The translations under genes and the position numbers were made by a program. The notes beneath the pieces were generated by a model, which was not told where the DNA came from, did no database searches, and worked only from the letters and a program-made list of their open reading frames with translations. Below are positions 5,203-46,999 of a stretch of DNA of 64,000 nt, piece after piece; positions within the stretch are counted from its first letter, which is position 1; each line of letters opens with the position of its first letter. Source of the stretch: Nitrosopumilus sp. GTDB taxonomy: Archaea > Thermoproteota > Nitrososphaeria > Nitrososphaerales > Nitrosopumilaceae. Location of the stretch: contig OZ245003.1 of NCBI GenBank assembly GCA_965223425.1, positions 448,001-512,000 of the forward strand. The letters run 5' to 3'.

Positions 5203-5658
5203 TTAATTCTCTGGATTCAATGTAAATGAAAGGGCAGATTGCTCAAATCCCAAACGTTCGTAGAATTTATGAGAGTCTTTTCGTTGATTTCCTGATTCCA
5301 GTCTAATCCTATGACATTTTTTTTCTTTTGCAAGAGTAATACATGAATTGATTAGCTTTTTGCCAATTCCTCGGTTTTGGTACTTTTCAAGAACAACCAA
5401 CTCTGGAACATACATCTCCAAAGTGTCTCGATTTAGTCTTGGCAAAAATACCATGCTTATCATGCCAACTATTTTCATATCATCAAATACGGCAACAAGA
5501 ATTTGTTTATCCGAGTTTGTAGCATATTTTTTTATTAATTTTCTGAATGTGTCAACGTCAGAATCCTTTTGGACTTTTGGACGTCCTAGATCATATAACA
5601 ATCCAAGAATTATGGGAATATCTTTGTCAGACGCTTCTCGAATTGTTATGTTTTCCAT
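5203..5658 (-). CDS. GNAT family N-acetyltransferase
   Basis: Likely start MENITIREA; QNRGIGKKL acetyl-CoA motif; FYERLGF. Confidence 0.9.
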   Translation of the reverse strand: MENITIREASDKDIPIILGLLYDLGRPKVQKDSDVDTFRKLIKKYATNSDKQILVAVFDDMKIVGMISMVFLPRLNRDTLEMYVPELVVLEKYQNRGIGKKLINSCITLAKEKKCHRIRLESGNQRKDSHKFYERLGFEQSALSFTLNPEN

Positions 5659-6300
5659 CAAGGAGACAAGCCATTTTAGCAATAAAAATGGACGCAGGTG
5701 GTGGCATCCAGTCACAAAAATTATCTAAACATTTCTGCCCAGATTCATAAAAATAGGCCGAACAAGTCATAACTAGGAATATTTGTCACTTGACAACCTG
5801 TATCCTCCTTCTGCCACTGTTAATCTGTTCCCTTGAGACTTGGATTGATTGAAAACTTTCAGATACCTCAAAATATGATGGATTGACACCTTTCAAGCAA
5901 GCCATAACTTTTGAGCAATCCTGCAAACATGAATCTGATCAAGCTAGCAAATAAAAATGTCAAAACTCCGTCTTTGAATGATTAACCGGCTCAATTGCCA
6001 AGTTAGCGATAAAACTGAGAACAAACAATCCTGTAAATCCCAATCCCGCACCAGCAATAATTTTTTTAATTTTACTCATTTGCGGTAATTTTGTTTTTCG
6101 TTTTATCATTGAATAGCTTGTTTCATTGTCTTGACCAAACAAAAACGATTATGGCATATCCAATTCCAGTAAGAGACTCTATACGTTCTGCTAGAAACAC
6201 AGAAAGATCTGTAGTATAAACTGAGAAAAAAATTTCATATTGTACTGAAAAAACAATTATGTCACAACACAATTTTTTAATCCTGTACATTGCCCATAGA

Positions 6301-6588
6301 TCAAAATCTGGAAATATTGCACCAATTACTTGCCAGAATAAACCTACTTTTTTTTAAACGCAGGCTTTTCAGAATTTTTTTGTTTTTCATAAAGGAATTT
6401 TGTGCCGCCAAAAACATTAACAGACTTTCAAGCACTAATGACGATATGCCGAAATTTGCATCTGGGAAAAATTCCAAACCACCGTCTATGAATTGTGGAT
6501 TCACAAGCTCTGCTATTATCATAAAAATAGCACCAACTATGATGGTAATGCCTGAACCAATAATTGGCAAAGAACTGTGTTTTACCAT
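6301..6588 (-). CDS. Hypothetical membrane protein, possibly a fragment
   Basis: Two hydrophobic segments; weak support. Confidence 0.35.
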   Translation of the reverse strand: MVKHSSLPIIGSGITIIVGAIFMIIAELVNPQFIDGGLEFFPDANFGISSLVLESLLMFLAAQNSFMKNKKILKSLRLKKSRFILASNWCNISRF

Positions 6589-6665
6589 GAGTTTAGATTA
6601 TGATTCTCATACATTACCGTCTGTATGTTATTTTGAATAACATTGGTATGCAATTAGGCATAAAA

Positions 6666-6681
6666 TGGATCCACGGGATTT
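6666..6681. repeat. Degenerate att-like copy of tRNA-Val 3' end (putative outer island boundary)
   Basis: TGGATCCACGGGATTT vs TGGGCCCACGGGGATTT at 26910. Confidence 0.45.
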
Positions 6682-6934
6682 CAAGTCTTAGTGACTGTTT
6701 GAGGCCCAAAATTTTGCCAAATTTTAGTTATAATTAACAAAAAATAGCAACTATAACTAACGTTAGAATCTTAAAAAAGTCTTGGAATTTTCCAACATCA
6801 ATTTACGCATAATGTTTTGTTACAAGTAAAAATTATTGGTAATGTCAAGCACAATCACACGTAATATTATTGCAAATTAAGAGCGTAATTTGTAATTTTT
6901 TAGCAATTATATTATGAATGTCTATTAGAATGGA

Positions 6935-7657
6935 TTATTCATTTTCATCAATAGATACAAATGTTATACTAGATTTAAATTCTTTAATACCTTCTGAATT
7001 TTGTTGTGAATTATAAACTTCAATAAATTTTGAAACTATCTTCCTATCCCATAATTCGATATTATTTTTTTGTGCTAGCTCTTTTGCAGAATTTGTAAAT
7101 ATAGAATTTGTAACCACAATTCCTTTGTGTACATTATACCATGCAATTGCTCCTAAAACTTCTTGAACAGCACTGTTGGTTACTTTTTTATCTATGGAGA
7201 ATCGTTTGGTCTGAAGAACTAATTTTTCATCACCTCTTTTAGCAAGTATATCTCCTCCTTGATCACCACTACCTCGAGTTATGCTAACATCAGTAAATTT
7301 GTTAAATTCCATTATTTTCGCAATGAAACTTTCAAAAGCAAAACCATCTAACTTGTCTGCATCAAAGACAGATATTTTTTCAAAAGATTCTTTATTTTTT
7401 GATGTGTTTTGGACAGGAATGGTTGATAAATCAATGTCAGAAAGTTCCAAATCTAACAATTCAAGAAGTTTTCTAGCCTCAAAATTTTGTCCAATTATTT
7501 TTGGTATAATATGCATTGCAAAATCTGTTTTAGATTCAGAATTCGTCATATTATGATCACATGCGTAATGATAAATTGCATTGTGAAGAGTTTTTTCACC
7601 TTCAAAATTACCCCAAAAATTAGTTAATTCATCAACATTAGTAAAATGTGCACACAT
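6935..7657 (-). CDS. Mrr-like restriction endonuclease (Mrr_cat)
   Basis: FAFESFIA, GDQGGDI, LVLQTKRF, VVTNSIFT and ELWDR motifs. Confidence 0.9.
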   Translation of the reverse strand: MCAHFTNVDELTNFWGNFEGEKTLHNAIYHYACDHNMTNSESKTDFAMHIIPKIIGQNFEARKLLELLDLELSDIDLSTIPVQNTSKNKESFEKISVFDADKLDGFAFESFIAKIMEFNKFTDVSITRGSGDQGGDILAKRGDEKLVLQTKRFSIDKKVTNSAVQEVLGAIAWYNVHKGIVVTNSIFTNSAKELAQKNNIELWDRKIVSKFIEVYNSQQNSEGIKEFKSSITFVSIDENE

Positions 7658-7658
7658 A

Positions 7659-9416
7659 TTATCGCCATCCTCCTTTCTTATCTATTATAATTTTCTTCAG
7701 ATTTTTATGATAAACTATGATTTTACTACCTAACATTTTTTTTGCTTTATAGATACAGTATTGGTTATTTTCAGATAATTCCCATTTTTTATATTTCTTT
7801 AAATCCGAATTTGTCGCAATAACCTTCTGAACTAAAGAATTGTCCCTTTCTACCTCCGATAAACTTGAGCAACTCTTACATAATTTGTCTCTTAGACAAT
7901 TGTTACTGTATATCTGTTCACAGAATTTGCATGTTGTTGAATCCTTTGTACAGTGAATTTCATCACAAATAGCACAAATTTGTCTATCATTTGGACAAAA
8001 TTGTTTATTACATTGAAAACATATTTCAAAGTCTACACTACATGTTCGTTTGTTACACCCATAACAAGAAACAATAGATCTATTACAAAATTTCTTTTGA
8101 CAATATTGACAATTATCATTACAAAAGAAGCATGTGATTTTAGAGCAATGAGAACAGTGCATTAGATGTTTTTCACAGGTTAACTCGTTACAAAAATTAC
8201 ATTGAACAGAACAATCAGTACATACACCTTCTTTGCAAATATAACAGGGGTTAAGTTCAGAAGTACACTCAATACACACATCTTTTTGACATTTGACACA
8301 GTGGTTTACACATAATCCACATATTACATGCGAGTTTACACACAAATAGTTTTTTTCTGCCTGTTTATTACAAATCTCACAAATTAGTATGAATTCTTGT
8401 GAGGGTTCGAAGAATTTAGTTTGAATCGCTTTCTCAGTAAATTTATTTTTTAATGTAATTTTGCAGTTTGATGAACTATACGAATAAGCAGTTCCCGCAA
8501 TTAATGAGAAATCAATTATGGGACGATACCTCTTTTCAATCTGTTGAATCTGTACTTCTTTATCTTTGGTTAATCTCTCAATCTGTTTAATTGCTTTATC
8601 CTCTGCTTTTTTAATTCGTTCCGATTGTTTTTCTTTTTCTTTAATATATTTATTTTGAGTATCTACATAGCGTGCATTAATTATTTTTCTATCAAACTCT
8701 TTTAGTTTTGATTGTTGATATGAGACATCACCATTAATTTCTTCAAGTCGCCTAATATGAGCTTGATTCAACGAATTCGAATCTTGAGTGATGCTATCTC
8801 GTGTTTTGGAAACATATTTCGTTGCTAATGGTTCCATCTCAATTTCTAATGATTTGGTAGCATTACTGTAACAGTAATCTATTCGTGGATCGTCTTTTTC
8901 ATATCTAATTGTGCCTAGTTCTGCATCTAATTGAATTTCAGAGGGAAAATCAAGCGGCAATAGAGTTTCAAAATCAATGTCTATCCATCTTAGCATGGAA
9001 ATACTTTTGATGCTTTTTACGGTAATATTGAAATAAAATCTAATCGCCATTTTCATATCTTCTGAGAAATTATCCAAAGTCACATGACAGTTGTGAGTAG
9101 GTATTTTATCCAAACATTCTGTTGGTGATTCAATTTGTTTTTTTAAATGACCCCAGGTTACTGGTGCCTGTTTTTTGATTTCACCAAGTATTATTGCAAG
9201 AAAGTTACTTCCCGGAACTACCCATTCACATGAATGAACATCAGCTACTGAATGCTCAAAAGTTATTCTCTTTGTTATTCCACCAAACAATGACTCATAA
9301 TCAGTTGGAAAGGTAATCGTGTAAAGTCCGTGAGTCTCATCTATTGCAGCATTGATTTTTTTCAAAAAGCTTAATGTTAAATCTTTTGAATATTCCAAAA
9401 GTATTTGATCATCCAA
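7659..9416 (-). CDS. YqhG-like protein with coiled coil and long Cys-rich (multi-CxxC) C-terminus
   Basis: 585 aa; more than ten CxxC pairs in the C-terminal ~170 aa; directly downstream of an SNF2 helicase. Confidence 0.7.
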   Translation of the reverse strand: MDDQILLEYSKDLTLSFLKKINAAIDETHGLYTITFPTDYESLFGGITKRITFEHSVADVHSCEWVVPGSNFLAIILGEIKKQAPVTWGHLKKQIESPTECLDKIPTHNCHVTLDNFSEDMKMAIRFYFNITVKSIKSISMLRWIDIDFETLLPLDFPSEIQLDAELGTIRYEKDDPRIDYCYSNATKSLEIEMEPLATKYVSKTRDSITQDSNSLNQAHIRRLEEINGDVSYQQSKLKEFDRKIINARYVDTQNKYIKEKEKQSERIKKAEDKAIKQIERLTKDKEVQIQQIEKRYRPIIDFSLIAGTAYSYSSSNCKITLKNKFTEKAIQTKFFEPSQEFILICEICNKQAEKNYLCVNSHVICGLCVNHCVKCQKDVCIECTSELNPCYICKEGVCTDCSVQCNFCNELTCEKHLMHCSHCSKITCFFCNDNCQYCQKKFCNRSIVSCYGCNKRTCSVDFEICFQCNKQFCPNDRQICAICDEIHCTKDSTTCKFCEQIYSNNCLRDKLCKSCSSLSEVERDNSLVQKVIATNSDLKKYKKWELSENNQYCIYKAKKMLGSKIIVYHKNLKKIIIDKKGGWR

Positions 9417-11368: not shown

Positions 11369-12497
11369 AGACTTTATGCATAATTGAATCATAAAAATTT
11401 TTCCGAAAGACTTGGATCTATTTTGATCGCCGCAACAGGTAGGAATCTCCAGAACAGACGATACGCAGGCTGCAAAGGGGGCTCAAGCAAAAGGACACAG
11501 CAATCAAGCAGAATAACAGAGCAATCAAGCAAAAGGACACAGCAATCAAGCAGAACAACAGAGGAGCAATCAAGCAGAACAACAGAGGAGCAATCAAGCA
11601 GAGCAACAGAGGAGCAATCAAGCAGAGCAACAGAGCAATCAAGCAAAAGGACACAGAAATCAGCAGGCGCGAGAAGACAGTCGACTCACTCCGCAAGCAG
11701 CTGCTGCTGCGCGAGGACAGTCTGTGGACCGCTACAGATGCAGGCCGTCCTGATACGGACACGTCGCCGTTGCCGCCGCTGCACAGCAGGGTGGTGATCC
11801 GCGGCATACTGCATAGCAGCGCAAAGCTTGCAGGGATTACCGTATGACCTTGACCAGTTTGACTACACCTGCAATGACTTTGTGGCAGAGTCAAGGAAGC
11901 ACGGCGGCGGCGGCGGCGCGCCGCTCTTTTCAGAGGACGAAACACCGGATCCCGGAAACCGCTGCCTGCCTGGCCGCAGGTCCGTCCTGCTGCTTGCGCT
12001 GTTCCGCAAGCGCTCAAACGTGACGCAGGATGCACTGGGAGTGCTGTTTGATGTGGATCAGTCCACCGTGTGCAGGTACCTCCGGTTCGCAGATTCCGTG
12101 CTGGCAGGGATCCTGCCTACTGCAGACAGGATGACCCGTCTGGTAAAAAAGGCCGAGACATCAGAGCAGCTAGAGCAGCTAATGCCGGACAGAACCATCA
12201 TAATTGACGGCACCGAGGTGCCAAGGCAGCGTCCGCAGGACAAGGATAAAAGAAAAAACACGTACTCTGGCAAAAAGAAGCGCTTTACGATTAACACCAC
12301 CATAATAACAAACAGGGCAGGCCTGATACTTGCAGCAGGCAGGTCCTTTGAGGGCGGGACGCACGACCTTACCATGATAAGAGAGGATCCGATAGACTTT
12401 GGCAGGTGGTCTAAATCCATGTACAAAAAGGACACTCCGGAAAAGGACAGGATACGGGTACTTGCAGACAAGGGGTACCAGGGAATTGCCAATCACT
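11369..12497 (+). mobile_element. Truncated IS5-family (DDE_Tnp_4-like) element, transposase pseudogene
   Basis: Left end AGACTTTATGCATAATTGA; HTH (QDALGVLFDVDQSTVCRY), IIDGTE, YSGKKK and LADKGYQG motifs; cut at 12498 by a second IS. Confidence 0.8.
11483..11657 (+). repeat. 21/24-bp tandem repeat array in the IS 5' region
   Basis: Repeated GCAATCAAGCA(G/A)... units encoding AIKQKDT / AIKQNNR(G) / AIKQSNR(G). Confidence 0.85.
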
Positions 12498-13568
12498 AGA
12501 TGAGTTGCGCAATTGATTCAGTTTGAGTATAATCTCAATATTTCCTAACAACAAGATCCAAGGCTAAGAAACAACCATTTTCAATTCATGTTCAATCACA
12601 CGAAACTAGCAAAAAGACCAAAACGATTCCTGTCAATAACAGGACTGACTGCTCCGCAATTTGATTCCTTGTCAAAAGAAATACAAAAAAAATACAAAAC
12701 TACAGAAGCAAGACGTCTATCAGAAAAGAAAGGAAAAAGAGACATTGGTGCAGGACACAATTTGATCTACCAATCAAAGACAGAGTTCTGATGCTGTTAA
12801 TGTACTACAGAATGTACACAACACACGATATGTCGGGAATGATATTTGACCTGAACAAATCAAATGTGATGCGAGATATCAGATATTTGGAGCCCGCAGT
12901 AAAACAGTCAATCCCAATTCCCGCCAAAAAGTATGCAGATTCAAAAAAGATCAGCGGCATACAGCAGCTCCAAGAGTTCTTCCCAGAACTAATTGCAATC
13001 ACAGACGGTACGGAGCAGCCAATACCGAGACCAAAAAACAAGCGCAAACGTAAGACACACTATTCAGGCAAAAAGAAAAACCACACAGTACAAAACCAGA
13101 TTACGATAAACCTTGACGGAGTCATAATTCACAAACCTGCACATTCACCCGGATGTCGCCACGGTTACAAAATTTACAAATCAAAACATCCGACACTGTC
13201 TGAAGAGCTGTTAAACTTTTATGACCTTGGATATTTGGGGATTGAAAAGGACTTTCCAAAACAGACCAGCATTTTGCCATACAGAAAAAAGAAAGGAAGA
13301 AAGCTAACTGATTCTCAGAAAGAGTGGAACAAATCTCAAGCTAAAGTTAGAATCAGGATAGAGAGCATGTCATTGCACAAATCAAAAAATTCAGAATCAG
13401 CGCATATACATTTAGGAACAGATTGCGTCGTTATGACACCATTAGCGAGATAGTCTGCGGAATTGTTAATTTCAAGATACGGTGGAAGCAAGAGCTTGCT
13501 GTGATTCCATAAAATCAAAAACTATCGAGTGAAAGATGGGATTTTGATTGTAATTGCGCAACTCATCT
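12498..13568 (+). mobile_element. IS5-family (ISL2-like, DDE_Tnp_4) element, copy 1, frameshifted transposase
   Basis: TIRs AGATGAGTTGCGCAATT / AATTGCGCAACTCATCT; ITDGTEQ, YSGKKK and DLGYLG motifs; no TSD (flanks ACT vs GAT). Confidence 0.9.
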
Positions 13569-13883
13569 GATAATTACACTTGGATTCGACATGGGTAATT
13601 GTTGTACCGCCGCCAAGATGTTTTCCGCCTAGACGAAACACGGTCATTTTATCGGTGTCTTCTATGAGATTTGCACCATGTGCATGATTCCTAAACTCTA
13701 CATATGGGAAGGTTCCCTCTCATGTCTGCTCCCCTCACACTTGTATAATCAATACATTCTCTTATTGGCATGTCGTACTTTTGATATACGGAAATTAGTT
13801 CAATTTCAGAAGGATGTGTCAGGAATTTTATGTCCTGTGGGTGACATTTTTGGGCCAACTGGCAATCAAGGCGATGCCGGCAG

Positions 13884-15552: not shown

Positions 15553-17485
15553 CTATTGTCCTTCTGATCCTAGGCGGACTGACTTTTCGTACAATTGACT
15601 CTTTAGCTCAATGTGGTCAGTTACTTTGAGCAGTGGTGAATTAGGCTCTGGATACGCTCCCAGATCTTTTTTCCAATTCTCCCTGTACTGCCAGAGATAT
15701 TCGCAGGCCTCTGGTGTGATAGATGTCCAGTAACTTTCAGGATCACCGCGATACACCAAAAGGGCAGCACCCTTGAAATTATCATCATCGTCTCTGAAAA
15801 ATATAACATCACGCCACGTAAAATAATCCCATGATTCCAGTCGGAATCCTGCAGAAGAAAACATTGTCAAAATTACCTTGTCTGTAATGCCGCGTGCTGT
15901 GAACATCATTTTTTGAATCTCTTCTCTGGCATATGCCCTATCCTGAGAGTTTACGGGTCTAGAGTGGCGATCATTGAAAATTTCGCCTCAAACACAACGA
16001 GCTAGATACCTGTAGATGTCAAGTTTAATGGAACATGTCCTAAAGTACTCTGACACTGTGTGTTTGAGATCTTCAAGCGTGTCATAGTGTGCTGCCGTGA
16101 TCAGCCTGTACTTGGCCTGCTTCCACAACGCCTCGATGGCACTAAGCTTCGGAGTGGCAACAGGCAGGTAGAGTATCTCGATCTCTCCCTTGTGATCCTC
16201 CAAGTATTTTCTTGCCGCCGCCGTCTTGTGCTGGCCGGCATTGTCCGTTATCAGCAGCACCTTGCCCCACTTGCGGCGGGCCTCTGCCAGGTACCTCACA
16301 AACGTAGGGCCGTCAAACTTGTCATACAGGCGCATCAGTCTGGTGCCGTCATCTGCAAGCGCCCCGTATACGACTGTCTTGTCCCTGCGTCCTGACCTTT
16401 CTATCTCCACGGGATCGCCTATGCGCGACCACAGCCTCTTGCCGTCCTCACCGATCCTTATGAATATCGACTCGTCCTGTATCGCAATCCGGAATCCACG
16501 CCTTTTTGCACGTGAAATGACTGCTGAGGCGTCTTTTTGCCACCGTCGTACCTCGTCGGCGCCTGCACTGTTCCCGTATACTGTCGTGGATGTCTTGCAG
16601 GAGAATCCAAAGACGCGCATTATCCTGCGCATGTTGGACATGCTGTATCTTCTGTTTGTCTTGCGACGTATCTGGTTGCGCAGCTTTCGCGGAGTCGGCG
16701 TGTTCTTTTTGCAAAGCCTGTCGGCCAGCTTTTCTATCAATGCGTACAAGACGTCCGGGCTTTTGCCTCTTCCTGGCGCGTCCCGGAGGCCATCTGCGCC
16801 ATATTTTCTGAACCTGCATACCCACAGCTGGACTGTGCGTTGGTCTACGTTGGCAATATCTGCAAGATCTGCCGTAGAGTGTCCCATGAGGACTCCGCGC
16901 ACTGCCAGCATCCTGTCACGAATCTTGATGTTCTTCTCTGCACGCATGGCCTCCGTCAGTGCCTGTACTTCGTTCACAGCTTGCAGCTGATCTGGTGATC
17001 AATAAGCTTTTCTGTTCAGTCCTGTCTGGAGAGGCGAAATTAATTATAATCGCCACTCTAGGATACAGATGGTATAGACGCTTCCAGTGCAGTGGCACGT
17101 CATTTGTATCCAAGAGTATCTTTATGGGCTTTGTATAGTTGGGAACAGAATTCGGACTAGTCTTGCCTTGGCTTACCCTCCTGTTAAAGTACTTGATGTA
17201 TTCGGCAATAATGTTGGTGCCTGCCTTTGAATCCTTTTCACACAATTTGACAAAGCATTCGGCCTGTGACTCTACGGTCTTGTCAGGTATAGCACACTCC
17301 ATCTTTTTGTACAGATTCAATGGTATCTCTTTGAGGAACCTTGCCAGATTCTTGGTATAATGTCTCTTGGTTTCAGGGTTTTTTATGCCGTCAAGAAAAT
17401 TTTCGTATGGAATGCCTTGGGTGGTTATCTTTTTGAGATCAACATTGAGCATTACGCCCTCAATATTTGAATCAGATTTAAGCAC
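15553..17485 (-). pseudogene. Tyrosine integrase split by IS630 and truncated by the IS481 fragment
   Basis: Removing IS630 rejoins LYPR|PVNSQDRAYAREE in frame; SSAGFR catalytic Arg motif present; C-terminus missing. Confidence 0.85.
15962..17058 (-). mobile_element. IS630-family element with apparently intact transposase (15988-16977)
   Basis: TIRs GAGTGGCGAT...AATTTCGCCTC; TA duplication; QDES, DNAGQH and LSAIEALW DDE motifs. Confidence 0.92.
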
Positions 17486-17496
17486 CTCATGGTAGA

Positions 17497-17508
17497 TGGG
17501 CCCACGGG
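17497..17508. repeat. att core, direct repeat of tRNA-Val 3' end
   Basis: TGGGCCCACGGG identical to 26910-26921. Confidence 0.8.
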
Positions 17509-17685: not shown

Positions 17686-18942
17686 TTATCTGATCGGTTT
17701 TGGAAGCTCTTGTCGCTTCCAGCTCTTTCCATGAATCTGTTTCAAAAGTCCATCGTGTTCTTCTTTCGGAAGATCAGCTCCTATTAAGTGTGCTATGAAT
17801 TTAATGGCGTTCTTTTTTGCAGGCATTCCCGCCATGATCTTGCCATTTGATCTGATTAATACATTTGACCAGTACCTTGTACGAGGTCTCCAGTCTATCT
17901 TATTCAATCTCTCTATTAGAACATCTCTGTTTATGCGATCATTTAGTTTGCACGCATGTGCGTATCCGCCAACTAGTGCAAGCTGGCCTATCGGCCGATT
18001 TGACAGATAATCTTTTCTCATTTTTATACGCGTCTCATCCCCCTTTTCTGTTGGATCTTTGAGAGATTTTCGCCACACATCAATTCCAGATATGAGTTTA
18101 GTCCACTCCCTGCTTATCTCCTTCAACCGTTGATCAGTTTCGTGTTCAGGTATATTTTCAGGCTTGGATATGGTGGGGATTTTTGAACTACCTAGAAGAT
18201 GTATGCTGGCATCATAAAATGTAGATATGGTCGTAAACTCGTGTGCTGTTATATTAAGCGCATTTTTATCCAAGCTTACCAAACGTTCAGGAATTATATT
18301 GTTGTGTATCATCCGTCTTACTATGATTGACATGGTATTGTCATCATCAGTAATTAGCTTGTTTGCTTTCGTAGTAGGTTTTGCATATTTGTTTATCTTG
18401 TTGAATATGTATCTGGCCTTTTTCTCTTCAAAACGAACTAGTATTACTGCAACCTTTTCTTTTCCCAGATCGGGATTACTTTGGATGGTTGAAATAGAAT
18501 TGTCTCCGCCACCGTCCCCTTTGACGGCCAACTCAAAAGCCTTAGCTCTATGCTGTCCATCAAGAGGAATCAGAATTGCACTTCTAGACATTATAAAAAA
18601 CCCCATATCTTCAACTGCCTCATCGTATAATTTTGGGATGGAATCATCCGTTCCTACAAATTTACCTAGTGGTTCAAATTCCATCTTTTCATCATTTTTG
18701 ACAGCCAAAACTAAGGATCCTGAGAATCTGTTCGGGTCATTTGCAAAATATGGTGCTATATCACGCTTTATTCGTTTCAAATTGAGTTCTCTTTGAAATT
18801 TTGCGTCGAGTTCAAGATCCTCCCAATTTGGAAGATCTGCAGGAAATACAATTCGGCTGATTAATTCCGCAAGTGGCATAGAGGTAAGAAAGTAATCTGT
18901 ATTTCCAAACCTTGCTCGTAGTGCAGGATATGGGCTAGACAT
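17686..18942 (-). CDS. DndB-like DGQHR-domain (ParB/Srx superfamily) protein
   Basis: FQRELN, IPLDGQHR and FNKINKYAK motifs; 418 aa. Confidence 0.85.
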   Translation of the reverse strand: MSSPYPALRARFGNTDYFLTSMPLAELISRIVFPADLPNWEDLELDAKFQRELNLKRIKRDIAPYFANDPNRFSGSLVLAVKNDEKMEFEPLGKFVGTDDSIPKLYDEAVEDMGFFIMSRSAILIPLDGQHRAKAFELAVKGDGGGDNSISTIQSNPDLGKEKVAVILVRFEEKKARYIFNKINKYAKPTTKANKLITDDDNTMSIIVRRMIHNNIIPERLVSLDKNALNITAHEFTTISTFYDASIHLLGSSKIPTISKPENIPEHETDQRLKEISREWTKLISGIDVWRKSLKDPTEKGDETRIKMRKDYLSNRPIGQLALVGGYAHACKLNDRINRDVLIERLNKIDWRPRTRYWSNVLIRSNGKIMAGMPAKKNAIKFIAHLIGADLPKEEHDGLLKQIHGKSWKRQELPKPIR

Positions 18943-18989
18943 TGTGATTCCTCACATAGTGTTGTTTGCATTCAAATTGTACAGTCATT

Positions 18990-19316
18990 CTAAATCCCCT
19001 GTGTATTAGCATCGGGATGAAACCTCGATATAATTTCTGATTCAATATTCCTAATTTTGGGCTCCGTACTGTCCACATATACAAAGGATATTTTGATCTC
19101 ATTTGGATATGTTTCAAAATATTGTCTTAGTTGTGGATTAGATTCATCATGACTATGCTGTTCAATGCGTCTTTGCATATTCATACTCATTCCAACATAG
19201 ATACACTTACTGCGTAACCAAAAACTATACAGTCCAGCACTACTGTGTACACCATTATGAAAGTTATAATCAAACGACTGTGTCTCGGATTTAAGACGCA
19301 ATATAATTTCAGACAT
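18990..19316 (-). CDS. GIY-YIG nuclease family protein
   Basis: AGLYSF...IYVGMS...RRIEQH...IESEII...PDAN; likely start MSEIILR. Confidence 0.85.
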   Translation of the reverse strand: MSEIILRLKSETQSFDYNFHNGVHSSAGLYSFWLRSKCIYVGMSMNMQRRIEQHSHDESNPQLRQYFETYPNEIKISFVYVDSTEPKIRNIESEIISRFHPDANTQGI

Positions 19317-19320
19317 TATT

Positions 19321-20958
19321 TTAGACACCGCAAAGACCCTCGCATTCACTTGCCATAACATCATCATAATTCTGGGCATTGTTCAGATCCACCTTGCCTA
19401 ATTCTATTCGTGAATGATGCAGATATGCCTTTCCTCGTAACGATCCCTGTATTTTTGGAATATTACGTAGTGACCAGTCAATCTGGACAGCATCATTAAA
19501 AGAGTCAGGCTCGTTTTCTTTGAGCCATTTCCATTCCATGTCATTATGATATGGACATCCCACACATGCACTGCGGGGTAGTCGACGATCCGGATATCGC
19601 TCCTCGAACCAATTGTAAATATTGGCACGTGTCATTTGAAGATCCACAAGCGGATAGCGATTGTCTATCCATTCATTTCTACTGGGTTTTATTCTCTCAG
19701 ATTCATCTGCACTTATTCCTATCCACATCTCAACTTGGACATCTTTGGGTGCACGTCTTCCAGGAGTAAAATTTAGTCGCCTCCTTAATTCCTTGTGTAT
19801 TGGTCTTATCTTGTAATGCGTAGTGCACTGTCTAACTGCTACGGATTTGCTCCCATTTGGATTAATTAAAAATGCAGGTATGTCCATGAACTGATCTCCA
19901 TCAGAATTAACACCATTCAGGATGTTCTCTCTAATGTTTCCAGCAGTTACACGTATTACATCATAGGACAGTTGTTTTTCCAACCATTCCAGATGATCAT
20001 ATACATTTGGAGGCTCCCACTGTGTATCTGCAAATATGGCAAAATCAGGTTTTTCGAGTCCGTTCCACCCTTCTTCGGCCATGAGAGCAAGAACAGTAGA
20101 TTGCGCACCTGCACCCAGACTCAATACCTTGACTTTTTTTCCACCTCGAAGATATTTACGATCATTTACTGATTCTGGTTTACACATTTGACGATCTGCA
20201 CTGCGTCGTACAATCCTGCGTAAATTTTCCCTGTTTAGAGAATCAATCAATCTTGCACCTGCTACCCTGTTTAGCTCCGTTAGCATAGAAATGTATCCTA
20301 CACGATTTATTCCTTTTGCCTCGTTGTGCAGTGCTCGTACACATTCTGACATAGTCATGTAATTTTTTAATACAGCATATTCCAAGGTACGATGATAATA
20401 TTCCGGAGTTTTGGCGAATGTTTCTAATGCCTGTTTTGCATCAAATGCACCTGCTGAATGTTCTGCAGCTTTGGTGGCCGCGTGTGCAATCCACCATGTT
20501 CTGCCTGAAATGCTTGATTTCCAAATACCTGTTCCCTCGTTATTTTTTGTTAACCAATGCTTGCGCATATTATTCAAGTTAGTATTTTTGGTGCTTGGCC
20601 ATCGAGTAATCCCGTACTGGTGGAGGTGGAAATGATTTAGATATGCTAATACGTGTTGATCAGATGCTAATCTGGGCGTCATACCTTCAAACGAATTGTA
20701 AAAATCAAGTGCTTGATTATCCGCCATATGTGTGGGCATATTTGCTGGTACAGCAAGATCTATAGGCTTGATTATGTATGCGCCAGTAGGTTCACGGTAA
20801 TTATCAATCTTATATTTGACTAGCAAATCCTCAAAATTTGCATCGAGATTCTTGTAATGGTCAATATTTTCTTCAAAGTTATGATACAAATGAACAAATG
20901 CATCCTGTGTGAATTTGTACAGAGGTTGTCTTTCAGTCTGAGTCATCGTTTTCTCCAT
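19321..20958 (-). CDS. Fusion: DUF6339-like N-terminus plus PAPS-reductase-like PP-loop domain
   Basis: N-terminal YLNHF..TRW..GRTWWIA; C-terminal SLGAGAQST, FADTQWE, RQCTTHYKI, GISADE, SACVGCPY, ECEGLCGV. Confidence 0.75.
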   Translation of the reverse strand: MEKTMTQTERQPLYKFTQDAFVHLYHNFEENIDHYKNLDANFEDLLVKYKIDNYREPTGAYIIKPIDLAVPANMPTHMADNQALDFYNSFEGMTPRLASDQHVLAYLNHFHLHQYGITRWPSTKNTNLNNMRKHWLTKNNEGTGIWKSSISGRTWWIAHAATKAAEHSAGAFDAKQALETFAKTPEYYHRTLEYAVLKNYMTMSECVRALHNEAKGINRVGYISMLTELNRVAGARLIDSLNRENLRRIVRRSADRQMCKPESVNDRKYLRGGKKVKVLSLGAGAQSTVLALMAEEGWNGLEKPDFAIFADTQWEPPNVYDHLEWLEKQLSYDVIRVTAGNIRENILNGVNSDGDQFMDIPAFLINPNGSKSVAVRQCTTHYKIRPIHKELRRRLNFTPGRRAPKDVQVEMWIGISADESERIKPSRNEWIDNRYPLVDLQMTRANIYNWFEERYPDRRLPRSACVGCPYHNDMEWKWLKENEPDSFNDAVQIDWSLRNIPKIQGSLRGKAYLHHSRIELGKVDLNNAQNYDDVMASECEGLCGV

Positions 20959-21802
20959 CCATCCGTTTTTGGTTCCATTCTACCATGAGTCCTAGGGGTT
21001 TGAGTTTTGATTTTGATTCTTCTAGTATGTTCTGTGCATGTCTGTTGGCGTTTTCTTTCAGGTCATCATCGATCTGAATATTATGATTGTGTAGTGTCTT
21101 ACGTAATGCTTGTATCCAAAGATGGTCTTCATCATTATCAGTCAGAGTCCGAATAGCATGCTCTATAGCAGTTAGATATAGTGATGCATACAATACAGGA
21201 CCTGCACTTTGACGAAGGCGACGTACTCCTTCAAGAGTCTTATGATTTATCAAGATCGAAATAATATCCTGGTTGGCATCTATGACATATTCTCCTATTC
21301 CTATGGTCGATTTTGCTACCATGCTTATTGCGGCTTGGATCTTTTCTATTGAATCAATTGTAATCTCGTGCTGTTCCCCTATTGCCAATATTGCACCTGT
21401 TGGAAGATCCATTCCATCAGGTCTTAATTTTTGAATTTCATCATCATGTTCTTCGGATTTAAAATTATGTATTTCTTCAGTGGTTACCACATATGGAATT
21501 ATATTTATTTTTCCAGCATAATCTGTCAATTGAAGATCTAATGACCTATGCGTTTCTGTAAAATCAAACATAACTCGTTGATTTGTTTTACTACATTTTA
21601 TCATAGCAAATACTTTTGCTTTTTCTTTTTTGATCATATTGCTTATGAAAACACTGTGTAATTCATAGGATAATTCCAAGTTTATTTTATCTCGGGTGCA
21701 AGTTGCTTTGTTAATCTGCATATTGAAACTACACTCACTGCGATAGTCAAATCCATCTGGACGGATTACTGGATGCGGAAGTAACAGATTTGCATAGCTC
21801 AT
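20933..21802 (-). CDS. Hypothetical protein (PHPV N-terminal motif), operon member
   Basis: 289 aa; overlaps both neighbouring genes. Confidence 0.8.
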   Translation of the reverse strand: MSYANLLLPHPVIRPDGFDYRSECSFNMQINKATCTRDKINLELSYELHSVFISNMIKKEKAKVFAMIKCSKTNQRVMFDFTETHRSLDLQLTDYAGKINIIPYVVTTEEIHNFKSEEHDDEIQKLRPDGMDLPTGAILAIGEQHEITIDSIEKIQAAISMVAKSTIGIGEYVIDANQDIISILINHKTLEGVRRLRQSAGPVLYASLYLTAIEHAIRTLTDNDEDHLWIQALRKTLHNHNIQIDDDLKENANRHAQNILEESKSKLKPLGLMVEWNQKRMDGENDDSD

Positions 21803-23685
21803 TTTTTCGACTCCAATGATTTGTCAACCTGAATGATTTCCACAATCTCGTATCCTGTATATGACTCATTTTCTGGTATTTCCAAATCTAAAACAATTCG
21901 TTCGTTACACTTTGATGTCATCACTATATGATTTCCCTCTTTTTTTACATCAAATCTGGGTGGAGATATTACATTGACAGCAATTATTGGAATCTCACTT
22001 TCATTTCGTTTTTCCTCTCCGGCTCGCATTATTGCAATATGTATTGGTTTGTCATCATCATGCTTGGGTGTAAATGCAACATGAAGTTTATTTTCATCAC
22101 GAACGATTCTTGGATGTACCAAAAATGGCATATCATGTTTAGATTCATTTTTATCTCCAAGCTGCTTTGATCTAGACCTTGTCCCTTTGTCTGAACCTCT
22201 ACCCGAACGACCCGGAAGATCTACGTCACTCCATGATTCGGGGTTATTTTTTGTCTGTCTTGATGGACTTGGGGTAATTGTATGGTGTTGTAGTTCTATT
22301 CCCTCATTATGACCCAGATTGCTTCCCTTATCTCCACCAGGTGTGGGGAGTATCTCTGCAAGTTCAGGCAATTGAATGTTATTTTCTTCATCCATAGTGT
22401 TGATATGTTCCTTAACAAAATCCTCAATCTTTTTTTGTATCTGTTTCAGATCCTTTTTAGTTGCTTCGCGTTCTCCTTCATCATTAACTCGCTTAAATTC
22501 TATTGCCTGATGATTTGGTGGTTCCATTTCTCGTATTTTTTCATCGGTTTTATCGTCTTGTGCCATAACAACTCCGGCATATTTGGCCCAGCCGCTACCT
22601 ACAGACGTAGTAAATGGATTTTTTTTGAATGATTTTTCATCGGTAATTAACATTCCTCTCCGATTCACGTAAGCAATTCGGTTTGGCAGATCTTCATCAT
22701 GTATATTTAGTTTTACGGTAAATCTACCAATATTTCCCTCGATTGATTGTTTAGTGTTGCTATCTCGGATAATGCGATAATAATGGTGTGACTTTGTCTT
22801 TCTACCGTTTTCAAATATGTTGTCTAGAGTCTCATAATTTATTATTTCAGAATTAATATTAACTTCTAATTTTTTTTCATGAATTGCAACAAAAAAATTA
22901 CGTGCGATTGATTCTTTTGCAATTTTAATCCAATCCTTTACTTTTGGCTCAAACCCAATGATAAAAATGCCACTACCTACGCCATCAAGTCGGAATTCAT
23001 CGTAAATATTTTTTCCAGTTGTTGGTGCAGGTCGTTGATTTTGTAGAAATTTTTCCCTTGTTCCAAAACCTATGTGTTGAAGCATACCATTTGACTGTTT
23101 TGGATTTTCATGTGATGAAATTTTACATCGAATAATGAATTGTTCCATTCGACCTTGTTTTTTTTCGGATGTTTTGCGTTGAAAATAACGAGTTGAGTAT
23201 CCTACGGTTTGTATTGAAGATACCAAATATGGTGCATTTTTTCCAATGCCGAAACTTCCTCCGGACGCACTCATGTTTTTGCTAGTTGTACCCTCATCAT
23301 ATACTAGGGCATTCCATTTTTCATCAACTAATCCTGTTGTGTTAGCATCCGTTATTGCCAACACTTTGATTTCATCTTGTTTTAATGCTTTTAACGCATT
23401 TTGATAGAATTTGATACCTCTTGCATTTTTTTCTTGTTTGGTACGTTCTAGTGCCTTGTCCATATGCTTTGCAAGATCTTTGGCAGCAATCTTATGTGCA
23501 GGTATTGTTATTTCGGATATATTTACTACTACGGGTTTATTTTTTTGTACATCGGCAGCATCAAGGGAGTTCTGTATTATTTCCCTTATCGTACTGTCCC
23601 ATGCATCAACTCGAAAATGCTCTTGGCTGCTATCGTTGAAACCATATAGTACCCCTCCTCCGGTGGGTGGAAAATACCACTTCAT
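21799..23685 (-). CDS. GHKL/HATPase-like protein
   Basis: REIIQNSLDA, DANTTGL and GGSFGIGK motifs; EMEPPNH; 628 aa. Confidence 0.8.
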   Translation of the reverse strand: MKWYFPPTGGGVLYGFNDSSQEHFRVDAWDSTIREIIQNSLDAADVQKNKPVVVNISEITIPAHKIAAKDLAKHMDKALERTKQEKNARGIKFYQNALKALKQDEIKVLAITDANTTGLVDEKWNALVYDEGTTSKNMSASGGSFGIGKNAPYLVSSIQTVGYSTRYFQRKTSEKKQGRMEQFIIRCKISSHENPKQSNGMLQHIGFGTREKFLQNQRPAPTTGKNIYDEFRLDGVGSGIFIIGFEPKVKDWIKIAKESIARNFFVAIHEKKLEVNINSEIINYETLDNIFENGRKTKSHHYYRIIRDSNTKQSIEGNIGRFTVKLNIHDEDLPNRIAYVNRRGMLITDEKSFKKNPFTTSVGSGWAKYAGVVMAQDDKTDEKIREMEPPNHQAIEFKRVNDEGEREATKKDLKQIQKKIEDFVKEHINTMDEENNIQLPELAEILPTPGGDKGSNLGHNEGIELQHHTITPSPSRQTKNNPESWSDVDLPGRSGRGSDKGTRSRSKQLGDKNESKHDMPFLVHPRIVRDENKLHVAFTPKHDDDKPIHIAIMRAGEEKRNESEIPIIAVNVISPPRFDVKKEGNHIVMTSKCNERIVLDLEIPENESYTGYEIVEIIQVDKSLESKK

Positions 23686-23833
23686 TAGAATATCTCCTTT
23701 GAGTAATCAATTATCCTATTCATAACTACTTTTGATTACTAAATCTCACTTCATCTTAAGTATTACGTTAGATTACCAAGTACGAATTGGGATATTTACT
23801 ATCATGGATGGTCATGTCAAAAGGGGTGTTGTG

Positions 23834-23971
23834 ATGAAATCAAAATTTAGTATCTCAGTTGATTCAGATTTATGTAAATGGTTGGATACAGAAATAAAGA
23901 TCAAGCGATTTGCAAGTAGATCTCATGGAGTAGAATTTGCATTAACTCAACTCAAGAAAGAAACAAACTAA
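23834..23971 (+). CDS. Ribbon-helix-helix (CopG-like) regulator
   Basis: KFSISVD...WLD...FASRSHGVE; divergent from the cargo operon. Confidence 0.8.
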   Translation: MKSKFSISVDSDLCKWLDTEIKIKRFASRSHGVEFALTQLKKETN

Positions 23972-24399: not shown

Positions 24400-26831
24400 A
24401 TGATAACATCCAAAAAAACACCTCATAATACACTAGATTTCTATTGCGATCATCAAAATTTCCCTAAAAGTGAAATAAAGGAAAATCATAATCAAACCAA
24501 GGATGAAGTCGCCGAGAGGCTAACCGATATGGGAAAAAATAAACTTTCAACAAAAAAAGACACTGCCAAACTACAAACATCAAAAAAACAAAGAATGCTT
24601 AGAAATCCAGAGATCAAAAGATGGTATGACAATCTTGCAAGAGGTTCATTGATTACAGCCGATGTGAGACTAAGACGTCTTGACAGGTTTTGTCAGATAC
24701 ATCAGATGACTCCGATGGAGCTAGCAGAGCTTGGAATGAAAGACCTAAGAACCGCAACAAATCTTTTAGAAGACCACATTACATGGATGGAAGACAAGTG
24801 CTATGCACCCGGATATACAAGCGGTTTTGTAAAGACCATAAAGTCATGGCTTGCACACTTTGACGTAGAGATAAAACGCAAAATCAAGATAAAAAACCCC
24901 AACCAGACACCAACTCTACAAAACGAGCGTGTCCCAAATGCACAGGAAGTTTCCGAGATCTTTGCAAGAGCATCATTACGCTCTTCTGTAATGATCTCGC
25001 TGATGGCAAAGTCTGGTCTCAGACCTGAAGTTATGGGAAATCATGACGGCACAGACGGACTGCGTATGGACGACCTACCAGATATTAGATGAGTTGCGCA
25101 ATTACAATCAAAATCTCATCTTTCACTCGATAGTTTTTGATTTTATGGAATCACAGCAAGCTCTTGCTTCCACCGTATCTTGAAATTAACAATTCCGCAG
25201 ACTATCTCGCTAATGGTGTCATAACGACGCAATCTGTTCCTAAATGTATATGCGCTGATTCTGAATTTTTTGATTTGTGCAATGACATGCTCTCTATCCT
25301 GATTCTAACTTTAGCTTGAGATTTGTTCCACTCTTTCTGAGAATCAGTTAGCTTTCTTCCTTTCTTTTTTCTGTATGGCAAAATGCTGGTCTGTTTTGGA
25401 AAGTCCTTTTCAATCCCCAAATATCCAAGGTCATAAAAGTTTAACAGCTCTTCAGACAGTGTCGGATGTTTTGATTTGTAAATTTTGTAACCGTGGCGAC
25501 ATCCGGGTGAATGTGCAGGTTTGTGAATTATGACTCCGTCAAGGTTTATCGTAATCTGGTTTTGTACTGTGTGGTTTTTCTTTTTGCCTGAATAGTGTGT
25601 CTTACGTTTGCGCTTGTTTTTTGGTCTCGGTATTGGCTGCTCCGTACCGTCTGTGATTGCAATTAGTTCTGGGAAGAACTCTTGGAGCTGCTGTATGCCG
25701 CTGATCTTTTTTGAATCTGCATACTTTTTGGCGGGAATTGGGATTGACTGTTTTACTGCGGGCTCCAAATATCTGATATCCCGCATCACATTTGATTTGT
25801 TCAGGTCAAATATCATTCCCGACACATCATATGTTGTGTACATTCTGTAGTACATTAACAGCATCAGAACTCTGTCTTTGATTGGTAGATCAAATTGTGT
25901 CCTGCACCAATTTCTCTTTTTCTTTTCTTTTCTGATAGACGTCTTGCTTCTGTAGTTTTGTATTTTTTTTGTATTTCTTTTGATAAGGAATCAAATTGTG
26001 GAACAGTCAGTCCCGTTATTGACAGGAATTGTTTTGGTCTTTTTGCTAATTTCGTGTGATTGAACATAATTGAAAATGGTTATTTCTTAGCTTTGGATCT
26101 TGTTGTCAGGAAATATTGAGATTATACTCAAACTGAATCAATTGCGCAACTCATCTATTGTTATCCACCAAGGAGTGGCAAAGTGCATAAAGACTCCGAA
26201 TCAGATAGTGGTACGAAGTGAGCTCTCAAAAACAAGACACCAATACTTTACGTTTTTGACAACGTCTGGTACAAAGAAACTACTTGCATACCTCAATGAC
26301 AGGCTAGCATATGGCGAGCCACTACATGGAAACTCTGCTGTAGTAGCTCCGGATCACACCCACACACTGAACCGCGGTAGAAATACATTCAAGACATTTT
26401 TGCCTACAAGACAGATAAGCAAGGAGATTCGTAAGACATTCCGACCAAGGTTTGAATGGAGACCTTACATACTGCGCGCCTACTTTGACACCGAGTTGTT
26501 AATTGCAGAGTCCAAGGGAAAAATAGCACATGACTTTAGGGTGTTCTTTATGGGACACAAGGGATCCATGGAAGCAAGGTACACTACCAACAAAGGAATG
26601 CTACCTGAGATACTGATTCGCGAAATGCGCGATTCGTTTGAACGCTCCGAAGAATTTCTTGATTTGGAGACAAACAAATCAGATGCAATACAGGATCAAA
26701 AACAAGAGATGCACAACATCATTCATGATGCAACACCAGACGAGCTTGATTCTATGCTAGAGGTACTACAAAGTACCGGCAAGATGAACCAAGTCAAAGA
26801 GTCGTTGCTTCAGACCGTGCAGAACAGATGA
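24400..26831 (+). pseudogene. Tyrosine integrase interrupted by IS5 copy 2
   Basis: KSGLRPE, then LPDI|VIHQG rejoined in frame across the IS; YILRAYF, FFMGHKG and RY motifs; frameshifted tail GWIFVGALPNGK runs to 26950. Confidence 0.9.
25087..26156 (-). mobile_element. IS5-family element, copy 2 (inverted near-identical copy of 12498-13568)
   Basis: Same TIRs as copy 1; 3-bp TSD ATT; same two frameshifts. Confidence 0.92.
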
Positions 26832-26909
26832 TCATGCAAGGCTGGATATTTGTAGGAGCACTACCTAACGGAAAAATCGTGCTAAAAAGGCCCGAGCCCG
26901 ATGTGGGAG

Positions 26910-26984
26910 TGGGCCCACGGGGATTTGAACCCCGGATCTTCGCCGTGTAAGGGCGACGTCATAACCTACCTGGACTATGAGCCC
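26910..26984 (-). tRNA. tRNA-Val(TAC)
   Basis: GGGCTCATAGTCCAGG...TCGCC-CTTACAC-GGCGA...GTTCAAATCCCCGTGGGCCCA cloverleaf. Confidence 0.95.
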
Positions 26985-41802: not shown

Positions 41803-41920
41803 TATTGAAAGAAAAATTCACTTAAATCACAAATGATTCCACTATGATATATTGGACATGCCAACTAGGAGCAGTATTACAAAGGGATCCCGTGTATTAA
41901 TCGAGACAAAGGAGAACCAG
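41803..41920 (+). repeat. Direct repeat copy 2
   Basis: Matches 40095-40210. Confidence 0.9.
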
Positions 41921-45219: not shown

Positions 45220-45229
45220 CTATTACATC

Positions 45230-46969: not shown

Positions 46970-46999
46970 TCTCTAATCTGCCATGTGCCCTTTTTTAAA

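Follow-up and report, generated by a model that had tools for sequence, protein, structure and literature searches.

The subject of this study is an operon of five genes (A to E; Table 1) at positions 17686-23685 of a 64,000-nucleotide stretch of DNA (the window) from the archaeon Nitrosopumilus sp. (contig OZ245003.1, positions 448,001 to 512,000). The reading that we favor, and to which we give an even chance of being correct, is that the operon encodes a restriction–modification (RM)-like defense module, carried on an integrative element, that places a sulfur mark, most likely a phosphorothioate (PT), on self DNA. An observation central to this reading concerns gene C, in which a DUF6339 domain is fused to a PAPS-reductase-like PP-loop domain, and consists of the complementary distribution of this PP-loop domain and of C5 DNA methylase genes beside otherwise related sets of genes.

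A preliminary description of this DNA, made from its letters alone, had listed the five genes as co-oriented and overlapping or closely spaced, and open reading frame (ORF) calls and translations agree with it exactly. Specifically, all five ORFs are intact and co-oriented, A and B overlap by 4 nt, B and C by 26 nt and C and D by 59 nt, and a gap of 47 nt separates D from E; the motifs SLGAGAQST, RQCT, SACVGCPY, ECEGLC and DGQHR that had been quoted are likewise visible in the translations. The same five genes were also found in the same order in three further thaumarchaeal loci (L001, L002 and L190), which answers the question of co-occurrence elsewhere, and in a fourth (L006) the contig edge lies directly after C. 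Each of the five genes gave a dN/dS of 0.06-0.21 when compared with L001 and L190, values that are rough as dS is near saturation, with C the most constrained. The five genes are under purifying selection, and their arrangement is not a product of chance.

In a wider set of loci, the genes that travel together are A, B and the DUF6339 portion of C. These are adjacent, co-oriented and in the same order in L001-L004, L184, L187-L193 and L210-L213, and unfused DUF6339 genes of 250-340 aa occupy the same A–B–DUF6339 order. Homologs of gene A were found on 27 plasmids, and the A–B–DUF6339 triad was present in all seven of the plasmid loci that were opened. In terms of genomes, DUF6339 is rare and patchy, occurring in 3 of 401 from the phylum of the window, 7 of 401 from the phylum of genome G401 and 5 of 401 from that of genome G402.

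With respect to the modification enzyme, the positions of C5 methylases (PF00145) and of DUF6339 were compared in DUF6339-bearing genomes. A co-oriented C5 methylase lies at most ~3.5 kb from the short unfused DUF6339 genes (251-271 aa) in 7 of 7 loci (G1055 twice, G402, G1175, G476 twice and G688), and the longer unfused forms (frames of 330, 340 and 702 aa) have one alongside in none of three. A PF00145 methylase within 30 kb was found at none of the eight fused loci (G000, G147, G168, G401, G402, G404, G485 and G499), and in G168 and G404 this family has no match anywhere in the genome. These genomes hold 1-8 C5 methylases in 2.4-3.9 Mb, and adjacency by chance is expected at ~1% per locus. 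The neighborhood survey that had been proposed, on whether the fusion takes the place of a DNA methylase in homologous loci, is thus positive, and since seven of seven short unfused loci and none of eight fused loci carry a C5 methylase, the PP-loop domain seems to replace the methylase in the manner of BrxP and PglX. BrxP of BREX type 4 is itself a fusion of a PAPS-reductase domain to DUF4007 and takes the place that the PglX methylase has in the other BREX types, as outlined in PMC12914056 and PMC12839542.

The plasmid loci give a related picture. In four of the seven (Deinococcus, Priestia, Paenarthrobacter and Planococcus), dcm lies at most 6 kb away, and Vsr, MutH/Sau3AI, AlwI or another type II restriction endonuclease is encoded nearby; of the other three, pMP1046A has other methylases, and the Halobacterium locus and that of Lactococcus, of which one flank is visible, have none. 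On the Ligilactobacillus (L.) salivarius plasmid pMP1046A the triad is located between hsdS/hsdM and a group comprising a large methylase, a DEAD helicase and a GIY-YIG gene, and on a conjugative plasmid of Lactococcus lactis it adjoins abiGI/abiGII. In an unrooted tree of DUF6339, all 20 fused rows lie together to one side of a branch with a support of 89/96 that is present in 88% of bootstrap trees, row L231 being doubtful (a very long branch, a length mismatch and possibly the wrong ORF). One fusion event, with later spread across domains, could account for this topology.

Judged by these neighborhoods, the conserved core is A–B–DUF6339 rather than all five genes. The GIY-YIG and DndB-like genes had originally been counted as parts of the system, a claim that does not stand: they lie outside the conserved core, because the bacterial fused loci L003, L004 and L188, and probably L005, are without both. 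At L003, L004 and L188, A–B–C stands alone among housekeeping genes. In the L003 copy (5607-9166), from a Dehalococcoidia metagenome-assembled genome (MAG), gene A is broken by a DDE_5 transposase gene (7302-8666), and this copy is therefore probably inactivated. In L004 (11675-12856), from a Longimicrobiales MAG, the gene immediately after the fused C encodes an S-adenosylmethionine synthetase; as SelB comes next, it is probably a housekeeping gene.

This core is catalogued as a defense candidate, PDC-M33, yet is uncharacterised. Accordingly, the statement that the architecture belongs to no named system holds only in part, as the PADLOC models PDC-M33A, B and C recognize A, B and the N-terminal half of C, in the same order, and the relative on pMP1046A is embedded in a type I RM locus. 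Embedding in BREX, DISARM or type I RM loci is also the basis on which the PDC set was nominated, according to the account of Payne et al. 2024 (10.1101/2024.01.29.577857), and PDC systems are described in PMC12988326 as unvalidated. The PDC-M33C models (247-346 positions) cover DUF6339 only, and three features of the operon go beyond the candidate system, namely the fused PAPS-reductase domain and the genes for the GIY-YIG and DndB-like proteins. Our literature search found no paper that names "PDC-M33" or "DUF6339", although supplementary tables may hold more; the PAPS-reductase-fused clade, the methylase-replacement pattern and the ParB-fold and nuclease partners are likewise undescribed in the literature searched, with the same proviso for supplements. 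Overall, the matches from a PADLOC scan of ten window proteins were confined to PDC-M33, SspD, SspE (weak), UzuA (weak) and DndB.

Gene A matches PDC-M33A at 1.8e-87, and nothing was found for it in Pfam, in NCBIfam or, by single-sequence and profile searches, in the Protein Data Bank (PDB), where the same searches gave no usable match for B, C or E either; PDB matches at E 0.2-0.6 ("Immunogenic protein", FIM-1, tryptophanase) were set aside as noise. On the strength of an hhalign comparison, and in line with its motifs, A is nonetheless assigned as a divergent GHKL ATPase, as had been proposed. Motifs I (ExxxNxxD), II (DxGxG-like) and III (GxxGxG) are invariant across 13 homologs from archaea, bacteria and plasmids (E35, N39, D42, D113, G118, G143, S144, G146 and G148), and the hhalign comparison of the first 300 residues with 16 HATPase_c_3 proteins from five genomes gave a match at 94.1% (E 1.3e-7) in which motifs I-III are in register. 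Pfam reached threshold for none of the 13 homologs, the best values being single weak leads to HATPase_c (0.038) and SACS (0.049). In the ESM Atlas, the clusters nearest to A are unnamed or bear a helix–turn–helix, and HATPase_c_3 clusters appear only at 0.88, which we treat as a lead only.

Gene B matches PDC-M33B at 1.7e-32 and belongs to a large family of 2573 representative clusters (E<=1e-3), for which Pfam has no model. Its AlphaFold2 model (pLDDT 92.7) comprises a beta-sandwich N-terminal part and a helical C-terminal part, for which Foldseek against the PDB returned generic Ig/FN3-like matches only (TM 0.15-0.25), from which no function is derivable. Its neighbors in the ESM Atlas are unnamed clusters, and one scan of IMG/VR with a single peptide pattern returned no relatives. 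The predicted partner of B is the DUF6339 domain of C. Models of the B–C complex gave a median ipSAE of 0.81, where the best of three controls gave 0.00, with at least 69% of contacts shared between runs and a partner pLDDT of at least 80, and every predicted contact with B falls inside residues 18-245 of C. The interface is predicted to pair residues 73-76, 92-96 and 134-138 of B with residues 94-100, 195-199 and 234-241 of C. By an approximate calibration that used our own alignments, 58 of 80 solved complexes attain this mark, as do 2 of 110 mismatched pairs.

Gene C is modeled as two domains (pLDDT 89), the first of which is mostly helical, with pLDDT mostly above 90. Residues 85-251 match Pfam DUF6339 at 2.5e-18, and residues 13-257 match PDC-M33C at 1.2e-21, which leaves the C-terminal half without coverage. 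A HEPN-like Rx4-6H motif in DUF6339 (R153...H159) was considered and dismissed, as H159 falls outside the columns conserved at >=90%. In the second domain, residues 277-494 match PADLOC SspD at 1.2e-17, residues 278-392 match Pfam PAPS_reduct at E 4e-4 with 20.9 bits, slightly under the cut-off of 22.5, and the domain matches the phage family phrog_424, "PAPS reductase", at 4.6e-44. Foldseek with the whole model of C recovered matches for the PP-loop half only (CysH, [4Fe-4S] LarE, TtuA, NcsA, GMP synthetase and YcfA, E 2e-3 to 3e-2).

Five cysteines of this domain (C378, C465, C468, C539 and C543) are invariant, and SLGAGxQS, D311, R376, C378, K383, D418-E419, C465, C468, H514, C539, G541 and C543 are invariant or nearly so in 142 distinct standalone homologs of viral or metagenomic origin. 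By profile and residue conservation, the C-terminal domain of C is a full phrog_424 member, with SLGAGxQS in the place of SGGKDS; the preliminary description had already set it apart as a distinct PP-loop subtype. Three of the cysteines, together with a Cys-bearing C-terminal tail modeled at low confidence, recall the PP-loop thiolases that carry a [4Fe-4S] cluster, as well as CysH with its ECG(L/I)H tail. A separate 241-aa protein of the genome, scoring 169 bits as a PAPS reductase, is a likelier CysH of this organism than C.

Two populations of relatives of C can be distinguished. Fused proteins are common, with 542 proteins of similar length at E<=1e-3, the best 120 of which are all ~535-567 aa, and their carriers include Thaumarchaeota, Pirellulales, Chloroflexi and others. 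Standalone PAPS-reductase genes (~260-300 aa) form the other. Pattern scans of JGI metagenomes and IMG/VR found relatives encoded in at least 546 of 595 and at least 587 of 600 matched stretches, and in the 160 loci kept among the matches listed only residues ~270-545 of C were matched, at 40-50% identity; profile searches of these 160 loci, many of them on short contigs, found A, B, DUF6339, D and E all absent. Among 940 ORFs within four genes of the standalone genes, one representative per cluster being checked in Pfam, the commonest neighbors were DNA polymerase A (35 loci), UvrD helicase (29), C5 DNA methylase (20), DUF6378 (14), AEP primase (13), cell-wall hydrolase (13) and Mom-family proteins (8), a setting of phage modules for replication and DNA modification.

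Named carriers of phrog_424-type genes include Geobacillus phage PK5.1, Pelagibacter phage HTVC034P, Thermus phage P23-77, Salisaeta phage SSIP-1 and Mycobacterium prophages, and the domain is also present on 185 plasmids; among phage and plasmid records, none covered 80% of the fused protein. The domain in gene C differs from this phage family in being fused to a cellular defense-candidate subunit. On the Mesorhizobium plasmid NZ_AP023261.1, a standalone PAPS-reductase-like match (46263-47111) lies under or between features whose annotations read DNA cytosine methyltransferase and P4-alpha zinc-binding primase-type protein, which is another case of a C5 methylase neighboring a standalone PAPS-reductase-like enzyme on a mobile element.

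Genes D and E, although outside the core, are retained after C in every thaumarchaeal locus whose sequence continues past that gene (4 of 4). Gene D matches Pfam GIY-YIG at 1.3e-5 and GIY_YIG_2 at 4.6e-6, and it is kept after C in L001, L002 and L190 with a dN/dS of 0.18-0.20. Gene E matches Pfam DndB at 1.4e-36 and TIGR03187 (DGQHR domain) with 90.5 bits, above the cut-off of 58.85; against DndB it scores 126 bits, whereas the canonical copies of the genome score 378-397. In the Chloroflexota locus L189, a GmrSD gene (DUF262+DUF1524) overlaps the end of C. We take DUF262 to be a ParB-type domain, and the DUF262+DUF1524 combination to be the architecture of SspE. Because a gene of the GmrSD/SspE type takes the position after C in L189, D and E resemble a split counterpart of SspE.

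Gene content, conservation, family memberships and the complementarity of methylase and PP-loop domain are observed, and contact between B and DUF6339 has the support of the structural model. For the defense function itself, its chemistry and the parts played by D and E, we infer the following sequence of events. A, as a paraMORC-type GHKL ATPase, B, as an adaptor, and the DUF6339 domain of C would form a three-protein machine that loads on or scans DNA using ATP. The PP-loop domain, three cysteines of which could hold a [4Fe-4S] cluster and the flexible tail of which also bears Cys, would then adenylate a DNA site and swap in sulfur supplied by a cellular cysteine desulfurase. Self DNA would thereby be marked, most likely with PT, as by SspD, DndC, BrxP and TdpC. 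Unmarked DNA would be cut by the GIY-YIG nuclease D, and the DndB-like, ParB-fold protein E may sense or limit the mark, D and E acting together as a split SspE analogue.

These proposals draw on several characterized systems. The synthesis of PT requires a PAPS-reductase-domain protein together with an NTPase, according to the treatment in PMC12914056, and this pairing is shared by the operon and SspABCD–SspE; the PP-loop domain of C also matches SspD, and the nuclease D with the ParB-fold protein E mirrors the DUF262+DUF1524 of SspE. However, SspA, SspB (DUF4007) and SspC are all unmatched here in PADLOC, Pfam and NCBIfam, the NTPase of the operon is a GHKL protein rather than an SspC-type ATPase, and its P-loop reads SLGAGxQS. 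TdpA, for its part, is reportedly a hexameric translocase and not a GHKL protein. TdpABC is described in PMC12914056 as a three-gene PT system in which tdpC alone suffices for PT synthesis, via an adenylated intermediate.

BREX type 4 (brxPCZL) offers a further likeness, in that a PAPS-reductase domain is there fused to a second, non-catalytic-looking domain and stands in place of the methylase of sister systems, as far as the two sources given above for BrxP portray it. The fusion partner in the operon is nonetheless an N-terminal DUF6339 and not DUF4007, and relatives of BrxC, PglZ and BrxL were not found in the PADLOC scan of the operon. With the Dnd systems, the operon shares a DGQHR/DndB-family protein (E) and a PP-loop enzyme with conserved cysteines, but DndC, DndD and DndE have no matches in it (Pfam, PADLOC and NCBIfam) and E falls under the equivalog cut-off for DndB. 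Since the partner genes of Dnd, Ssp and BREX type 4 were tested for and not found, the operon is not a member of any of the three.

The absence of dndCDE that had been reported is true of the operon; the genome (2.64 Mb), however, has three canonical dnd-type clusters elsewhere (G000:C1 ~828-833, 875-880 and 1630-1635 kb), each with DndB (378-397 bits), a PAPS-reductase protein of 472-518 aa and DndE. In terms of the ATPase, a precedent is that of the paraMORC proteins, divergent GHKL ATPases that Iyer, Abhiman & Aravind (2008, PMC2292703) found in mobile RM-like operons together with DNA methylases and with nucleases, among them Vsr-type endonucleases. The earlier suggestion that the GHKL protein and a nuclease form a restriction arm fits the paraMORC RM systems as that paper presents them, whereas B, DUF6339 and a PAPS-reductase partner are not mentioned in its section 5.

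Several points weigh against the proposal of a sulfur-marking RM-like module. Our literature search found no experimental DNA mark or anti-phage effect for the operon or for PDC-M33. The methylase comparison draws on two bacterial phyla and plasmids, and A and B are unconfirmed at three of the seven short-form loci (L228, L231 and L232). Moreover, methylases beside unfused triads are often accompanied by their own type II restriction endonuclease or Vsr, and their adjacency could for this reason reflect cooperation with, or clustering beside, a complete type II RM system. In terms of restriction, no nuclease is recognizable in the A–B–C core, which stands alone at the bacterial fused loci; by itself, A–B–C therefore cannot provide complete restriction, barring a concealed nuclease in the C-terminal part of A, in B or in DUF6339. 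Gene E scores 83.4 bits against the DndB equivalog TIGR03233, far from the cut-off of 328, and a cysteine desulfurase is absent from the operon. The nearest relatives of the PP-loop domain are viral, which fits DNA modification but also other uses. Finally, with three dnd clusters already present in the host, an additional PT writer would in part duplicate their function, barring a different sequence specificity.

One alternative retains the same defense logic and changes the mark, which would be a thiolated or amidated base or a mark on a nucleotide precursor, the phage homologs hypermodifying their own DNA. We consider this unlikely, although the closest relatives of the domain are phage genes beside Mom-like, C5-methylase and 2-oxoglutarate-oxygenase genes, the enzyme apparently replaced is a base (C5) methylase, and SLGAGxQS is unlike the SGGKDS of DndC, SspD and the second PAPS reductase of the window. 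The fold matches also include the base-thiolating [4Fe-4S] enzymes TtuA and NcsA and "YcfA from Erwinia amylovora bound with ATP". The last of these has a part in making thioguanine. Set against these points, the best match of the domain in the defense library is SspD, our literature search found no sulfur-base DNA modification system of such a kind, and the characterized defense-linked PAPS-reductase-domain enzymes named in PMC12914056 (Dnd, Ssp, Tdp and BREX type 4) make PT.

A second alternative dispenses with the mark altogether. Here, A–B–DUF6339 would be a modification-independent defense or abortive-infection machine, for example a MORC-like DNA clamp that activates nearby nucleases, the PAPS-reductase domain would be a sensor, a decoy or a nucleotide-depleting effector, and methylase adjacency would reflect clustering in defense islands. 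The triad is indeed without a visible modification enzyme in two of the seven plasmid loci (Lactococcus, beside AbiG, and Halobacterium) and at the three longer unfused genome loci, and Tiamat and GHKL-Shedu are portrayed as defending without a modification partner (bioRxiv 10.64898/2026.09.30.754977; PMC12137116). Type IV-B CRISPR, too, keeps a CysH-like protein, which PMC8175902 presents as of unknown role, and which resembles the domain of C in being a PAPS-reductase-fold accessory of a mobile defense-type module.

Nonetheless, this CasCysH is described in PMC8175902 as lacking the catalytic cysteine, whereas gene C has five invariant cysteines and all catalytic-looking PP-loop residues are invariant in it as in the free phage enzymes. 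The contrast of seven of seven with none of eight is also hard to obtain by loose island clustering, given 1-8 C5 methylases per genome, and in RM-like systems a modification enzyme is typically joined covalently to a subunit that confers specificity or serves as a scaffold, with BrxP as the example in PMC12914056. Modification-independent defense is thus, in our judgment, decidedly unlikely. Highly improbable, finally, is a non-defense epigenetic, regulatory or addiction module serving the integrative element, for instance by marking DNA to stabilize it: this would suit the position beside an integrase at a tRNA gene with insertion sequence (IS) copies on both sides, the A–B–C-only bacterial fused loci with their housekeeping flanks and the frequent lack of a restriction partner in Dnd modification modules (Aravind and colleagues, in the portion of PMC10853773 that treats them), but not the triad relatives inside type I RM loci and beside Abi genes on dairy plasmids, nor the nuclease and ParB-fold partners of the fused form in archaea and L189.

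Should the proposal of a sulfur-marking RM-like module be correct, PDC-M33 would gain a working hypothesis, namely a GHKL-driven RM-like chassis with an exchangeable modification enzyme, and a GHKL-ATPase-driven architecture would join Dnd, Ssp, Tdp and BREX type 4 in DNA sulfur modification. The very common phage "PAPS reductase/cysH" genes, often counted as auxiliary genes of virome sulfur metabolism, would then be DNA-modification enzymes. A more ambitious version, which we regard as doubtful, holds that the operon represents a fifth, mechanistically distinct DNA sulfur-modification/restriction system, in which a universal A–B–DUF6339 chassis for DNA surveillance accepts swappable marking enzymes (mostly a C5 methylase and, here, a phage-derived [4Fe-4S] PP-loop enzyme), the mark may be new to cellular DNA (PT in a new context or a thio-base) and the abundant standalone phage phrog_424 homologs, for which the usual annotation is a cysH "auxiliary metabolic gene", act as DNA-modification or anti-restriction enzymes. 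The plasmid versions from Lactococcus, Ligilactobacillus and Priestia make the core directly testable in tractable hosts, and if our reading is wrong, the operon is still an uncharacterised, widespread and conserved mobile module.

Table 1. Features of the operon, of its surroundings and of a second PAPS-reductase locus in the window (window coordinates).
Feature	Position	Strand	Description
Gene A	21799-23685	minus	628 aa; assigned as divergent GHKL (paraMORC-like) ATPase; PDC-M33A
Gene B	20933-21802	minus	289 aa; beta-sandwich + helical subunit; PDC-M33B; predicted DUF6339 partner
Gene C	19321-20958	minus	545 aa; DUF6339::PAPS-reductase-like fusion
Gene C, residues 1-262	20173-20958	minus	DUF6339 domain (PDC-M33C)
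Gene C, residues 270-545 + stop	19321-20151	minus	Phage-type PAPS-reductase-like PP-loop domain; 5 invariant Cys
Gene D	18990-19379	minus	129 aa; small GIY-YIG nuclease; start codon uncertain
Gene E	17686-18942	minus	418 aa; divergent DndB-family (DGQHR, ParB/Srx-type) protein
Small divergent ORF	23732-23971	plus	Probable start 23831; putative RHH-type regulator
Tyrosine-recombinase gene, IS-split	24400-26831	plus	N-part 24400-25092, C-part ~26161-26831; IS at 25083-26160
tRNA-Val(TAC)	26909-26984	minus	ARAGORN; probable integration target
12-nt direct copy of tRNA-Val 3' end	17497-17508	plus	Weak candidate distal att site, just beyond gene E
Second-locus PAPS reductase	47000-47872	minus	Canonical SGGKDS loop; C...CxxC...tail-CxxC layout, same Cys layout as gene C
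Second-locus HATPase_c_3 GHKL ATPase	45230-46969	minus	
Second-locus SF2 ResIII/DEAD helicase	43600-45219	minus	
Second-locus divergent GmrSD DUF262+DUF1524 gene	48036-49817	plus	

In terms of genomic context, the operon is plausibly the main cargo of a candidate integrative element of ~9.4 kb, now probably immobile, because a tRNA-Val gene, an adjoining IS-split recombinase gene and a 12-nt copy of the tRNA end past E are found around it. The preliminary description had spoken of a tRNA-Val element, and of its components the tRNA and the recombinase gene are present; the 12-nt copy is a match at chance level, with ~1 such 12-mer expected in the window. The N-terminal part of the recombinase has a weak XerA match in NCBIfam (2.5e-3), and R...H...Y recombinase-like residues can be read by eye in the translation of its C-terminal part. 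The small divergent ORF has a 52% identical counterpart in the same divergent position in L001; it has no Pfam match, the PDB offers only the antitoxin MazE9 (E 1.2) as a weak lead, and its assignment as ribbon–helix–helix (RHH) is unconfirmed.

Other mobile sequences surround the operon. Two inverted IS5-like copies (DDE_Tnp_4) of ~1.08 kb, at 12494-13572 and 25083-26160, are 96-98% identical and bracket 11.5 kb that includes the operon, a composite-transposon-like layout in which the right copy splits the integrase gene. A partial transposase ORF (11828-12499) abuts the left copy, and a tandem repeat of nine imperfect copies with a 21-27-nt period, rich in AGCAATCAAGCAGA, lies just left of the IS copies at 11457-11683. 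An intact IS630-family transposase gene (NCBIfam 2.4e-48) is located at 15988-16977, at a local GC peak of 0.54.

Beyond the operon, the genome's load of PAPS-reductase-based systems is unusual. A second, unrelated locus with the same logic is present in the window at 43600-49817, and from its gene content it looks like a MORC–helicase RM system in which a PAPS reductase replaces the methylase. A third pairing of HATPase_c_3 with a PAPS reductase is found at 1519.5-1522 kb of G000:C1. The flanks of the second locus encode a DUF2196 + Schlafen/AlbA_2 protein (41852-42616) and an ORF of 1114 aa without a Pfam match (50725-54069), both of which may extend a defense island.

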